A stretch of DNA of 64,000 bases. It comes from a virus (Duplodnaviria > Caudoviricetes). The DNA lies in the IMG/VR virus record IMGVR_UViG_3300044641_005618, one strand, 5' to 3'. A program made the translations under genes and the position numbers. The notes beneath the pieces were generated by a model. The model made no database searches, was not told where the DNA came from, and was given only the letters and a program-made list of their open reading frames with translations. Positions 33,646 through 42,365 of the stretch are shown piece after piece (within the stretch, counting starts at the first letter, position 1; each line of letters starts with the position of its first letter).

Positions 33646-34413
33646 CTAAGGAGCAAAGTCGCTCAAGGAAAGTTCCCCATAAGGCTCCCACTTTTCAACA
33701 ACAGTGCGAACGATTGCCTTGGTCGGGCGGTACTTCTCGGGAATGCCAACAAGATCCTCCGGGTTGACAAGACGGCGCTGTCTTCGCACGAACGTCCCGT
33801 GAGTGAAAAACTTAGGGAGTTCTTCCCACGGCTTTCCGACTTCGGCGAGCATCTCCTTCATCTCTTGGCAGGTTTTGCCCTGAAGAGACTTGTGGGAGAA
33901 GAAGTGGCGAGCGTACATGGACACGGAGTTTTTCTGCGCATCTTGTTGTCTCCAGACAAAGTTTAGGTATGCGTGTTCTAAGTCCGGGACATTCCACACT
34001 CTCGCGTCAAACACGGGATAGCACCCTTGCTTTTCATGCAGAACTTTTGGAATGTTCGCACTAAAGTATGACGATGCGGAGCCGGCCAGGATCGAGGTCA
34101 GCTTTTGAAACTTTCCGCCGAACCAGAACTCCCTGTTCGAGAAACTTTCCTTGTCGAGGTACCAGTAGAGAGTAATTTCATCGCTTTGGCAGTACCCAAG
34201 TTGGGCTTCACTCTTGTCAACGAGAAACTTGGTGGTTTCAATCATTAACTGCATAAATCGCTCGTCAAACGGTCGCTCTAGCCCCCTAGTGAAAGCACTG
34301 AAGCAGCTACCGTCGATACGTGCCACAAGGGGAAGGAACGGGTCGGCTTTTCGACCCGCTTCCGCCTGTTCTTGGGTCTTAAGGAGGTCTCCGAGAGTGT
34401 CTGTGTGTGCCAT
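33646..34413 (-). CDS. thg1: tRNA(His) guanylyltransferase Thg1 / Thg1-like 3'-5' polymerase
   Basis: VARIDGSCFSAFT..L.RPFD; YCQSDEITL; GKFQKLTSILA; FDARV; WRQQDAQKNSVS. Confidence 0.92.
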   Translation of the reverse strand: MAHTDTLGDLLKTQEQAEAGRKADPFLPLVARIDGSCFSAFTRGLERPFDERFMQLMIETTKFLVDKSEAQLGYCQSDEITLYWYLDKESFSNREFWFGGKFQKLTSILAGSASSYFSANIPKVLHEKQGCYPVFDARVWNVPDLEHAYLNFVWRQQDAQKNSVSMYARHFFSHKSLQGKTCQEMKEMLAEVGKPWEELPKFFTHGTFVRRQRRLVNPEDLVGIPEKYRPTKAIVRTVVEKWEPYGELSLSDFAP

Positions 34414-34422
34414 ATTGCTAGG

Positions 34423-34806
34423 TTATTTTTGTTCCGTGGAGTTGAGGCTTGTGGTCGAAAAAATAACGTTGTCTTGGGAAGGTTTGAGTTTCATATATGT
34501 TCGGGTGAGAAACTCCTGGGGTTCAGTGGGGTTGTTCCAGTATATGGGTTTGTAACTGGCATCACCTCTTGAAAGGAAACAAAACCATCTCTCAAGATCC
34601 TCAAGATAGTAGTAACTAGACAGTATTTCCTCCCCGTCTTGTTTTTGAGATTTCAGCTTACATTCCCGTCGAATGTAGTATAACAAATGATCACTCTTTC
34701 GAGTGAGAAGCCTACGAAGAAAACCCGAATTGCGAAACTCAAATGCTACTACATAGTTGTAGCGGTCGAAATCAAAATTACTGAGTGGTACGTTTACCAT
34801 TGTCAA
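34423..34806 (-). CDS. Hypothetical protein (tandem paralogue of 34833..35252)
   Basis: Both share AFEFR(N/D)SGF(L/F)RRL.TRK.D.L.YYIRR. Confidence 0.75.
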   Translation of the reverse strand: MTMVNVPLSNFDFDRYNYVVAFEFRNSGFLRRLLTRKSDHLLYYIRRECKLKSQKQDGEEILSSYYYLEDLERWFCFLSRGDASYKPIYWNNPTEPQEFLTRTYMKLKPSQDNVIFSTTSLNSTEQK

Positions 34807-34832
34807 AGTTTTAATTCAGTGTGCTGCAAACC

Positions 34833-35252
34833 CTAGTGAGTTGCGGTAGAAAAGGTAACGTTGTCGCTTGAGAGTCGAAGCTTCAGGCGTACTCTCATGA
34901 GCAACTGTTGAGGTTCGTCTGAGGTAGAAAAGTGCATTGGACCCCATGACTGGTCATTTCCTGAGCAAAAAGCATAGAAAGTCTCTTCCCGACTGTTAAC
35001 GCTCGTAAGTCTTGTCAAAGACGATAGAACCTTCTCCCCCTGACTCTCTTTCGCCGGGTCAGACGCAATCTTCGGCACTCGACGAATGTAATACACCAAG
35101 AAATCTTTTTTGCGAGTGAAAAGTCGGCGAAAGAAGCCAGAGTCGCGAAACTCAAAGGCGACTTCGTAGTCGTACTTTTCAAGGTCAAAAGCGTCGAGAA
35201 GATTCTTTTCCACTTTACGCGAGTAGGGTAGTGTAGGAAAGTTGGCGTGCAA
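34833..35252 (-). CDS. Hypothetical protein (tandem paralogue of 34423..34806)
   Basis: Same shared motif. Confidence 0.75.
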   Translation of the reverse strand: MHANFPTLPYSRKVEKNLLDAFDLEKYDYEVAFEFRDSGFFRRLFTRKKDFLVYYIRRVPKIASDPAKESQGEKVLSSLTRLTSVNSREETFYAFCSGNDQSWGPMHFSTSDEPQQLLMRVRLKLRLSSDNVTFSTATH

Positions 35253-35700
35253 GAAAACCGCACTCTTCTTTCACGTACTTAAGAGTCCTGTATTCTTGGT
35301 GGCGTTCCGTACCTAAGTAAACTTGTAGTTGCGGTGAAGAATCACCGTAGTGGGCGCAGTCGAAGCCGAACCACCAAACGTGGTCGGGTTGTCCCTCACC
35401 TGGAATGTGGCATATTCCTGTCTCCTCACTGTCAGGTTGACAGTGGTCGGAGAAAGTGAGTCCGCCGTGGATATCAATTCCCGGAACATCCTCCCAGTTC
35501 TTACCGAAGCAAGGGTGCTCGTTGTCAACGCCAACGTAGCCGCACCAATGTCCTAAGTCAGGGTGGCGAACTGCTAAGCAAGGGAGTCCGGTCGCCATGT
35601 CAGGCCACTGGACCTTGTCGGGCTCATTGTCCCACGGGCCAGATGGCCAACTCAAGGCTTGTCGATCAATGGTTGTGTAGCTAAGGGTTTTCATTGCCAT
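35215..35700 (-). CDS. Conserved-looking phage hypothetical protein
   Basis: GPWDNEPD..GHWCGYVGV..HGGLTFS..WWFGFDCAH. Confidence 0.75.
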   Translation of the reverse strand: MAMKTLSYTTIDRQALSWPSGPWDNEPDKVQWPDMATGLPCLAVRHPDLGHWCGYVGVDNEHPCFGKNWEDVPGIDIHGGLTFSDHCQPDSEETGICHIPGEGQPDHVWWFGFDCAHYGDSSPQLQVYLGTERHQEYRTLKYVKEECGFLARQLSYTTLLA

Positions 35701-40698: not shown

Positions 40699-40839
40699 TT
40701 TATGTAATTAGCTCTATATTACTTACCCTGCCTAGGTGGAGACAATTAGTATCTCAGATGTTTGCCACACACTCTTGCCAGAACTTTTCCCTCCCTGTGC
40801 GAGTGGTAGACTGAAGGACAGGAGTGCTGTGTACGATGC

Positions 40840-41358
40840 TCATGGTTTGAAACTCTGCTTTTTTGATGGGAGTTTTGATACGGGGATCTGAGCGAGCACA
40901 CAGCGAGTGTTCGACACCCAGGCGTGGCCGTTGTTAGCGTTGAACACAAAAAACTCGCCTTGGCTCACTGTGAGCGACCCGTGAGAGGTTATTAGCTCAG
41001 GTTTAGGTCGTTGATAAGAACCGTTCGAGGTCATACCCTTGTGCTGACAGATGTGGCTCGGAAAGTCTGAGTACAAAAGCCAACACAGTACATTCCCGAG
41101 TCCGGGGTCATTGTGCAACCCGATTGACCCTACAATCGGTATAATCGACCCTGAGCCGTACAATGCTGATTTCCGTGGCTTAAAGCCCGAAAGAGCAGCA
41201 CGCTTTTTTAGCGTTTCTCCTATTCCATCGTACACGCCTTTTAAAGGAATGACGTAATTAAGGCTGCCAGTGTCAGTCTGCTGAAGTTCTTTGATCAGGT
41301 GACTCACTACGACGTCGTCGTCAAGGTGAATGGCTCCAAGAAGTATGGGCTTCGTCAT
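40840..41358 (-). CDS. Possible 2OG-Fe(II)/cupin-fold dioxygenase
   Basis: GLHND (HxD) and a distal FNANNGHAW His; inferred from pattern only. Confidence 0.45.
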   Translation of the reverse strand: MTKPILLGAIHLDDDVVVSHLIKELQQTDTGSLNYVIPLKGVYDGIGETLKKRAALSGFKPRKSALYGSGSIIPIVGSIGLHNDPGLGNVLCWLLYSDFPSHICQHKGMTSNGSYQRPKPELITSHGSLTVSQGEFFVFNANNGHAWVSNTRCVLAQIPVSKLPSKKQSFKP

Positions 41359-41549
41359 TCGTCCTCGTCAAGCTTGAAGTAGTCTTGAACCTGACGCTTT
41401 AAGGACAGGTCAACCGGATTCCCCCTGTCCAAGGCGAAAAACACTTCAAGAAGAAGATCCTTAGCCTTTTGCAGATCTTGAATCTCCTCAGCCAGCGTGA
41501 GAAACGAGTTGATTTCCGGATGATTTTTCATTGGTTTGGGGTTGTTCAC
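41355..41549 (-). CDS. Hypothetical protein
   Basis: After the promoter repeat at ~41562. Confidence 0.6.
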   Translation of the reverse strand: MNNPKPMKNHPEINSFLTLAEEIQDLQKAKDLLLEVFFALDRGNPVDLSLKRQVQDYFKLDEDE

Positions 41550-41627
41550 CTTCCATACTAACTATACCGCTTTCCTGTCGAAAAGGCAGGGCGGCAAACC
41601 GCCCTCAGTAAGCAGTCCGCAAGGACC

Positions 41628-42365
41628 TCACTGAGCCATTGTGGCGTCGAGGCGGAGACCGTCGCGGAAGATCGCTTCTTGGGTGTGCTGAGGCAGCTCA
41701 CCGAGCAAGCGAAGAGAGTGCAGGGTGTTTGCACGGAACATTTTGTTCAGTTCTTCGCGCACCCTTTCGACGGAAACTTTCGAGAGCTTCTCCGCAGCGA
41801 ACTCGGAGATGAGGGCTTTCCAAGTTTCGGCCTCGATGTCAAGACCTTTGGTGATGTAGAAGCGGAAGCCACGCACAACCCTTAGCCCGTCCTCAGCGAT
41901 TCTGTTCGTGGGGTCACCCACAAAGCGCAGCAGACTGGCACTCAAATCCTCCACACCGCCAAACAGGTCTATCAGGGTGCCGTCCACGCCTCGGGCGAGT
42001 GCATTTACAGAAAAGTCACGCCGAGCCAGATCATCGGCCAGGGTACCAGGAGCGACCCAGTCTGGCCGCCTGCCATCGCTGTAAGGACCGTCTCGGCGGG
42101 CCAGTACGAAATCAGCGACAGCGGTGCGGGATTCCAGCGCATGGCCCTTCGGGACCCGTGCACGAATGGTCAGGAACTCACGGCGAGACTCGAAGACCTG
42201 AAAGCCTTGCTCAGTAAGCTGGGCCTCCATTGCCAGAAAGGCACTATCTGCCGTGGAGAAAGCACCTTCGGGAGCAACGACGGAAAAGTCAACGTCCTTG
42301 CTTGAAAGGCCAAGGAGAGAATCTCGGACGCAACCGCCGACTTCGTAGAACTGAAAGGTGGTCAT
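41628..42365 (-). CDS. cca: Class II tRNA nucleotidyltransferase (CCA-adding / poly(A) polymerase family)
   Basis: YEVGGCVRD..KDVDF; DDLARRDFSVNAL; RIAEDGLRVVRGFRF; SVERVREELNKM. Confidence 0.88.
   Translation of the reverse strand: MTTFQFYEVGGCVRDSLLGLSSKDVDFSVVAPEGAFSTADSAFLAMEAQLTEQGFQVFESRREFLTIRARVPKGHALESRTAVADFVLARRDGPYSDGRRPDWVAPGTLADDLARRDFSVNALARGVDGTLIDLFGGVEDLSASLLRFVGDPTNRIAEDGLRVVRGFRFYITKGLDIEAETWKALISEFAAEKLSKVSVERVREELNKMFRANTLHSLRLLGELPQHTQEAIFRDGLRLDATMAQ

Follow-up and report, generated by a model that had tools for sequence, protein, structure and literature searches.

A 64,000-nucleotide stretch of DNA from a virus of the Caudoviricetes (IMG/VR record IMGVR_UViG_3300044641_005618; the whole stretch is hereafter called the window) carries genes for a Thg1-like protein (TLP), a cyclic-phosphate processing receiver (cREC) protein and a CCA-adding enzyme directly upstream of a full set of tRNA genes and on the same strand. 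On balance, and with some reserve, we read these genes as part of a loose and evolutionarily plastic cluster of co-oriented tRNA-end genes upstream of CCA-less tRNA operons, in which the CCA-adding enzyme would serve mainly for tRNA maturation, the TLP for refilling 5' ends, and cREC, together with a 2H phosphoesterase, for opening cyclic ends. The stretch would then be an accessory-gene region of a freshwater jumbo phage of ~260–280 kb, lying directly upstream of the tRNA operons. An earlier reading of the same DNA, made from the letters without database searches (the sequence-only reading), had proposed one integrated counter-defence system; all four enzymes that it named are present, with Pfam matches and, in the 2H protein encoded at 5075, two HxT motifs, so that the discussion below turns on how far they belong together. 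As a proxy for the rest of the window phage genome we used the IMG/VR record G001, which is 277 kb long and ~90% identical; a megablast search of the region against cultured phages gave no match.

A full tRNA set without encoded CCA

All credible genes of the 64-kb window lie on the minus strand, to which all coordinates below refer. ARAGORN called 45 tRNAs between 4166 and 33446 which cover all 20 amino acids, upholding the earlier claim of a full tRNA set, and the Rfam tRNA model gave 47 matches at its gathering score (48 once an element at 30411 is counted), only four to five of them beyond the ARAGORN calls. CCA is encoded after none of the 45 ARAGORN tRNAs and none of the 48 Rfam matches, the base following the discriminator being T in 38 of the 48. 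Since none encodes CCA, every phage tRNA needs CCA synthesis before it can be charged, and we infer from these sequences that tRNA maturation would suffice to explain the CCA gene, with repair as an extra. The first tRNA after the TLP gene, at a distance of 199 nt, is tRNA-Gly(CCC) (33374..33446; called by ARAGORN, Rfam score 72.6 bits), and the same tRNA follows the Thg1 gene both in G001 and in L034, a more distant relative described below.

A short CCA-adding enzyme

The gene at 41628..42365 encodes a short predicted class II CCA-adding enzyme of 245 amino acids (aa) made up of head and neck. The head matched PF01743 (PolyA_pol head; E 7e-19, 68.8 bits) and the RNA-binding neck PF12627, and the class II motifs A–E (GGxVRD..DxD, RRD, D..GG..DL, EDxxR, ERxxxEL) are all present in the translation. 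The best matches among solved structures were the CCA-adding enzymes 6ibp and 1miv (E 2e-23), of which only the first ~245 of 400–420 residues align, and the best NCBIfam matches were likewise CCA enzymes, with scores below the equivalog cut-offs. The body and tail domains, which bind the tRNA elbow, were not found in the protein, which ends at the end of the neck; these domains are typical of the class II CCA family and are non-catalytic. The short form is not an artefact of truncation, because its length is kept in the orthologues of L034, L035 and L039 (244–247 aa) and in all 120 of the 120 best database homologues (232–269 aa). It is found, too, in the cultured Synechococcus phages B3 and B23, in S-CBWM1 and in Microbacterium and Arthrobacter phages. 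A literature search for half-size CCA enzymes found no paper on them, which is weak evidence of absence. The first task of the short enzyme would be to finish the 3' ends of the ~50 tRNAs and tRNA-like RNAs that the phage makes in a burst, and the re-addition of lost CCA would come second.

A bacterial-type Thg1-like protein

The Thg1 homologue (255 aa; 33646..34413) is encoded by the last gene of a unit that starts at a promoter at ~35972. It matched PF04446 (Thg1) with an E value of 1e-25 and 90.5 bits against a cut-off of 29.2, and PHROG 4717 with an E value of 6e-68. The closest solved structure was that of the Bacillus thuringiensis TLP (4kgk; E 1.5e-29), whilst eukaryotic Thg1 (Candida) matched at only 3e-8 or weaker. 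The catalytic carboxylates of the window protein (RIDG and QSDE) align with the RxDG and SDE motifs of 4kgk, and the HINNLYN motif for the tRNA-His anticodon was not found in it, QKNSVSM standing at the aligned site. Judged by these alignments, the window Thg1 homologue is a bacterial-type TLP and not a eukaryotic Thg1, and for that reason templated repair of tRNA 5' ends is the likeliest of its predicted activities. The established activity of the TLP family is the templated 3'–5' repair of 5'-truncated tRNAs.

In the window phage, the TLP would accordingly be expected to refill 5'-shortened acceptor stems by templated 3'–5' addition. The tRNA-His(GUG) gene (21570..21643 including G-1; Rfam span 21571–21642; no encoded CCA) has G at base 21643, before +1 and paired opposite C73 (21571), which bears out the earlier claim that G-1 is encoded; on this tRNA, the TLP may restore G-1 opposite C73 after RNase P miscuts. 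We also considered the TLP as an editor of mismatched 5' ends, but a 1:72 or 3:70 mismatch occurs in just two to three of the 45 tRNAs (one of them, Glu CUC, conserved in G001), which is too few. The G1.A72 mismatch of this tRNA-Glu(CUC), at 23525–23597, is identical in G001. A second Glu-like element (28331–28403) has U1.U72 and probably no decoding role, given that its anticodon loop is not the same in the window, in G001 and in L034.

Recurrence in related phages

The gene order CCA, ligase, cREC, Thg1, tRNA array recurs in L034, a 268-kb contig (Thg1 71% identical), and in L039 (68%). L035 (66%) has a WDGH gene followed by CCA, a small gene, Thg1, another small gene and Metallophos, with no tRNAs within 10 kb, and in L013 the CCA gene lies 6 kb upstream of Thg1 with tRNAs downstream. 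The cultured phages that we compared have Thg1 proteins ~40–46% identical to the window TLP; among these, three have a CCA gene 2.5–7 kb upstream of Thg1, namely Caulobacter phage CcrPW, Brevundimonas phage Marchewka and Vibrio phage D69. On the downstream side of Thg1, D69 also has genes for an RNA ligase, a polynucleotide kinase and a phosphoesterase, all within 6 kb. CBB and BcepSaruman have no CCA neighbour near Thg1.

Across eight Thg1-bearing whole records, a CCA gene was found in six and tRNA matches in all eight (5–55 in each). The cREC gene is found in only two of the eight. That cREC is a regular partner is therefore without support: it is absent from the other six records, and at genus level its spread barely overlaps that of Thg1 among cultured phages. 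In these comparisons, the robust recurrent link appears to be that of TLP with CCA in tRNA-rich phages, and cREC, the ligase and adjacency to the array appear limited to the window clade. A functional link between TLP and CCA, with a role at tRNA ends, is likely.

cREC, the 2H protein and the repair repertoire of G001

The cREC gene (36029..36568) matched PF20274 (cREC_REC) with an E value of 3e-26 and 92.2 bits against a cut-off of 27, and relatives keep its acidic motifs DDER and LDHD. The gene more probably starts near 36493, directly at the stop codon of the 134-aa open reading frame that precedes it. Iyer et al. (2021; PMC7824862) predict cRec to be a cyclic-phosphate phosphoesterase, and a literature search found no biochemical report on cREC. 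In L039 the first ~65 cREC residues are fused in frame to a domain like that of two small proteins of the block, p127 and p139 (8654–9214 of L039), probably by a deletion that inactivated cREC in that lineage. We rejected this fusion as a Rosetta-stone link, as only ~65 cREC residues are kept and the sole other two-domain relative has a different N-terminus.

The 2H phosphoesterase is a minimal protein of 130 aa (5075..5467), encoded inside the tRNA array between tRNA-Thr and tRNA-Arg and 28 kb from the enzyme block. Its two HxT motifs are H34-V-T36 and H89-M-T91, and it matched PF08302, the cyclic-phosphodiesterase (CPD) domain of fungal tRNA ligase and thus the tRNA-ligase CPD 2H family (E 4e-8, 33.5 bits against a cut-off of 23), over the second motif region only. 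G001 carries a 92%-identical copy in the same context.

No RNA ligase is encoded in the window, as had been noted before: tblastn searches with the Rnl1 and Rnl2-type proteins of G001 found nothing there. The sequence-only reading had proposed a search of the rest of the genome for Rnl1, Rnl2, RtcB and Pnkp, for which G001 served as proxy. G001 encodes an Rnl1-type ligase, a ligase with an N-terminal OB and an Rnl2-type domain (Rnl2/5-like), an AAA_33 kinase directly beside a calcineurin-like phosphoesterase (Metallophos), an RlaP nucleotidyltransferase and a DUF2828 (Ro-like) protein; RtcB, KptA and TROVE (PF05731) were not found in it. Its Rnl ligases, kinase and phosphatase lie tens of kb from the Thg1 block, outside the stretch that matches the window. 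Taking G001 as a guide to the window phage, the lineage would have nearly the whole published RNA-repair repertoire, spread over ~100 kb, and cREC and 2H, both predicted phosphoesterases, could open 2',3'-cyclic ends for the RNA ligases, the kinase and phosphatase and RlaP found in G001.

The alternative that survives best, unlikely as we judge it, is that cREC and 2H destroy cyclic-nucleotide or NAD-derived immune signals in the manner of Acb1 and are mere neighbours of the tRNA enzymes. Iyer et al. (PMC7824862) place cRec in NAD-centred and cyclic-nucleotide contexts, and they also report operon links of cRec with RNA ligases, which tell the other way. In the window a quinolinate synthase gene, NadA, is found 6.5 kb upstream of CCA, and L035 and L039 likewise have NadA on the upstream side of their CCA genes; cREC itself, which occurs in Streptomyces, Escherichia and Gordonia phages, has a spread unlike that of Thg1, yet it has stayed between CCA and Thg1 in three lineages. 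An Acb1-family 2H gene directly precedes Thg1 in T4-like relatives, but the window 2H protein matches the tRNA-ligase CPD family and not Acb1, with only the HxT motif in common with an Acb1-like protein, and its gene sits within the tRNA array. The 2H–Thg1 pairs of the T4-like relatives are found in L036 (9188–10798), L037 (9552–10768, where the 2H stop and the Thg1 start overlap by 4 nt) and L038 (9213–10789), and this recurring pair may have a role other than one in cyclic-nucleotide signals.

Promoters, transcription units and the array

A promoter-like repeat, consisting of CTTG, a spacer of 16–20 nt and GGTATA(A/G)T (GGTATAGT or a near variant), occurs in 22 copies on the minus strand and in none on the plus strand of the window, and in 33 copies in G001. 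The spacer is an inverted repeat whose sequence varies whilst its pairing is kept; a hairpin placed between -35 and -10 is uncommon and may serve as a site for a regulator. The sites start at 62563, 61657, 60995, 59710, 56636, 55236, 51688, 48065, 47494, 43702, 43023, 42418, 41590, 38582, 36930, 35972, 32850, 32456, 17530, 16256, 14232 and 7944, and a consensus scan agrees for several of them. Within the block, a copy of its own precedes the CCA gene (42389..42418, with CTTG, the hairpin spacer and GGTATAGT), the genes from p64 to p172, the group p78/WDGH/p291, the pair p134/cREC and the group MazG-like/p139/p127/Thg1; no promoter-like site was found before the endonuclease or ligase genes. 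Given these separate promoter copies, the block would not be one operon but at least four promoter-led units, with a promoter class shared with many other genes, which suggests co-timed expression. Being co-oriented and having the same promoter type, the genes are probably expressed together, and would form neither one operon nor one machine.

The integrated counter-defence system of the sequence-only reading, in which replacement tRNAs, repair of 5' and 3' ends and tRNA-shaped decoys would act together against tRNA-cutting immunity, seems to us improbable. Tellingly for it, tRNA-end enzymes do stand beside a full tRNA set on one strand and in one region, the 2H gene lies within the tRNA array, TLP and CCA are linked, and G001 has a rich heal-and-seal set; moreover, that phages counter host defence with replacement tRNAs and repair is already accepted (PMC7824862). 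It is the unity of the system that lacks support: the block falls into several units with promoters of their own, between which lie a mobile endonuclease, a DNA ligase and unrelated genes, the 2H gene is 28 kb off, and cREC and TLP are seldom together elsewhere. The adjacency of enzymes and array, which the same reading stressed, is real in the window, L034 and L039, and does not extend to G001, where the Thg1 block adjoins a 9-tRNA array only and the main array is ~70 kb away and inverted. The left 27 kb and right 37 kb of the window map ~70 kb apart and in opposite orientation in G001, with the breakpoint inside the tRNA array (window 26861–27054; G001 143482 / 45564), the cause being either a true inversion of ~98 kb or a difference in assembly. 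Distances of 20–200 kb separate the tRNA arrays from Thg1 in the other Thg1 phages.

Metatranscriptome contigs from lakes, obtained in several studies, cover most of the region at 90–99% identity, with a depth of 200–2100 over the non-coding zone rich in tRNA-like elements (29348–31695) and of 2–14 over the protein-coding block. This contrast argues that the structured RNAs of the 29.3–31.7 kb zone, 20–100 times deeper than their coding neighbours, are truly abundant, which favours the integrated proposal; counting against decoys is the Ro-like DUF2828 protein carried by G001. We did not use as evidence that parts of the enzyme block are uncovered in some RNA runs, nor a 10.5-kb RNA-contig 'joint' (32435–42962), which joins two copies of the promoter repeat and is probably a contig chimera.

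A narrower idea, to which we give a low probability, is that the head-and-neck CCA enzyme and the TLP might form a phage-private acceptor-end maturation pair, co-evolved with tRNAs that lack CCA and with tRNA-like RNAs of odd shape. Having lost the body and tail, which measure the elbow, the enzyme would be able to finish RNAs that have no normal elbow, and could mature or stabilise mimic RNAs too. Least likely of all is synteny without function, that is, independent accessory genes sharing an early-region gene dump beside the tRNAs, since the many unrelated or unknown genes interspersed, the copy of a region-wide promoter before each unit and the fast turnover between close relatives (ligase loss, endonuclease gain, a divergent p172, the L039 cREC fusion) have to be set against Thg1–CCA proximity in at least three unrelated phage groups, where two given genes would fall within 10 kb by chance in ~7% of 280-kb genomes, and against the co-occurrence of Thg1, CCA and many tRNAs at the genome level.

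Our preferred reading, the loose cluster of tRNA-end genes, has points of its own to answer. L011, whose Thg1 is 82% identical, and the T4-like L036–L038 (51–57%) have no tRNAs and no CCA gene within 10 kb. The CCA enzyme is without the body and tail which full-length enzymes use for holding tRNA, and the activity of cREC is taken from a published prediction, those of the block enzymes in general being predictions from sequence. The RNA depth of 2–14 over the enzyme genes could equally come from contaminating DNA. To our knowledge, no host weapon shortens tRNA 5' ends. All of these weigh against the cluster as we have described it; a counter-defence role for it is nevertheless plausible.

The ligase, the homing endonuclease and other genes of the block

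Between the CCA and cREC genes lies an ATP-dependent ligase of the DNA-ligase type (375 aa; 38625..39752), which was absent from the earlier list of enzymes. It has N-terminal, adenylation and OB domains, with matches to PF01068 (53.5 bits), PF14743 (23 bits, slightly below cut-off) and PHROG 114, and its best solved matches are the DNA ligases of African swine fever virus (ASFV) and Chlorella virus, with which all three domains align; around the motif I lysine, KLNGQR of the window protein aligns with KRNGVR of ASFV. In view of this alignment and of its dispensability in G001, a role as RNA ligase was ruled out. The gene is present in L034 and L039 and lost in G001, in which all that remains of it is an orphan piece of 28 codons, and Pfam searches found no ATP- or NAD-dependent DNA ligase in G001. 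The window, too, has an orphan ligase N-terminus of ~28 codons (40756..40842, read from the sequence), abutting the p172 stop. As L034 and L039 have the ligase and G001 only the remnant, the gene would be ancestral to the block yet dispensable, and in the window phage it seems to have been gained anew along with a mobile endonuclease. The latter is a free-standing homing endonuclease-like gene (289 aa; 39829..40698) with repeated NUMOD-like motifs (PHROG 314, E 2e-6), just upstream of the ligase gene; it is absent from G001, L034 and L039, so that L034 and L039 have the ligase without it. The DNA-type ligase and homing endonuclease would be passengers of the cluster. Within the tRNA array, at 19664–20413, there is another homing-endonuclease-like gene (phrog_314, E 2e-13).

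Next to the TLP gene are two paralogous small genes, p127 (34423–34806) and p139 (34833–35252), whose products are 45% identical to each other; they had no Pfam or PHROG match and 17 representative relatives among 1.84 billion proteins. They are preceded by a gene for a 161-aa protein (35215..35700) which matched phrog_2164 (E 5e-31) and, weakly, MazG (1.7e-5), with no sequence match in the PDB. The idea that p127/p139 or the MazG-like protein form a mini-synthetase/pyrophosphatase pair was unsupported by Pfam, PHROG, NCBIfam and PDB. The first gene of the cREC unit, p134 (134 aa; 36490..36894), is conserved (93% in G001, 71% in L034) and had no family match in Pfam, PHROG or the atlas search. 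The 291-aa protein p291 (36998..37873), which lies outside the conserved block, belongs to a very widespread phage family (phrog_10079, E 3e-69; 2429 homologues); its confident AlphaFold 2 model (pLDDT 92.5) found no counterpart in the PDB with either Foldseek or VIA (best Z 3.9), nothing in the atlas and only unnamed clusters in the AlphaFold database. A 111-aa WDGH-domain protein is encoded at 37951..38286 (PF25311, E 1e-32); in L035 the WDGH gene directly precedes the CCA gene, and a literature search on the domain gave nothing relevant.

Further upstream, the quinolinate synthase gene NadA noted above (48908–49825) matched its family with an E value of 1e-118. At 52999–53472 is a gene for a protein with a ProQ C-terminal-like domain of phage type (E 1e-6), a possible RNA chaperone.

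Comparison with known systems

The window, taken with its relatives, documents well how tRNAs are supplied and their ends kept up in a giant phage, in which the CCA enzyme would be needed simply for finishing the phage's own tRNAs. The comparison with relatives separates the parts that travel together (TLP and CCA) from those that do not (cREC and the ligase). Half-size CCA-adding enzymes are a large family which enzymologists could take up easily and with profit. Set beside the CCA-less tRNAs and odd tRNA-like RNAs, this family is the most promising loose end.

The window CCA enzyme has in common with those of Geobacillus (1miv) and Planococcus (6ibp) and with human TRNT1 the head and neck and motifs A–E, including the nucleotide-selection motifs RRD and EDxxR; it differs from them in having only 245 aa and neither body nor tail. 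The TLP shares its catalytic carboxylates with the Bacillus thuringiensis enzyme (4kgk), and the tRNA-His anticodon-recognition motif is absent; the window protein is phage-encoded and ~35% identical to its bacterial counterpart, by eye, over 205 aligned residues. The Bacillus thuringiensis TLP was reportedly the subject of work by Rao and colleagues (2011; PMC3061083).

With the repair of anticodon breaks by Pnkp and Rnl1 of phage T4, the window phage and G001 have the heal-and-seal logic in common, and Vibrio phage D69 has CCA, nucleotidyltransferase, Thg1, RNA ligase, polynucleotide kinase and phosphoesterase in one 12-kb cluster. In contrast to T4 and D69, the RNA ligases, kinase and phosphatase are outside the window here, tens of kb from the block in G001.

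The closest precedent is the RNA-repair repertoire of jumbo phages set out by Iyer, Anantharaman, Krishnan, Burroughs and Aravind (2021; PMC7824862), which builds on Burroughs and Aravind (2016). In that paper, phage tRNAs replace cleaved host tRNAs, Rnl1, Rnl2 and RtcB act as ligases alongside kinases and phosphatases, 2H and cRec deal with cyclic ends, RlaP, CCA-adding enzymes and Thg1 with lost end nucleotides, and a Ro-like protein has a tRNA-like partner. The parts list and logic are the same as in the window phage and G001, and every element of the counter-defence and repair idea is already in the literature; this is no new kind of system. The paper calls Thg1 sporadic and contains, as far as we could see, no account of a conserved block of CCA, ligase, cREC and Thg1 heading a tRNA array, of a head-and-neck-only CCA enzyme or of an entirely CCA-less tRNA set, and it is in these features that the window phage and its relatives differ from the published repertoire.

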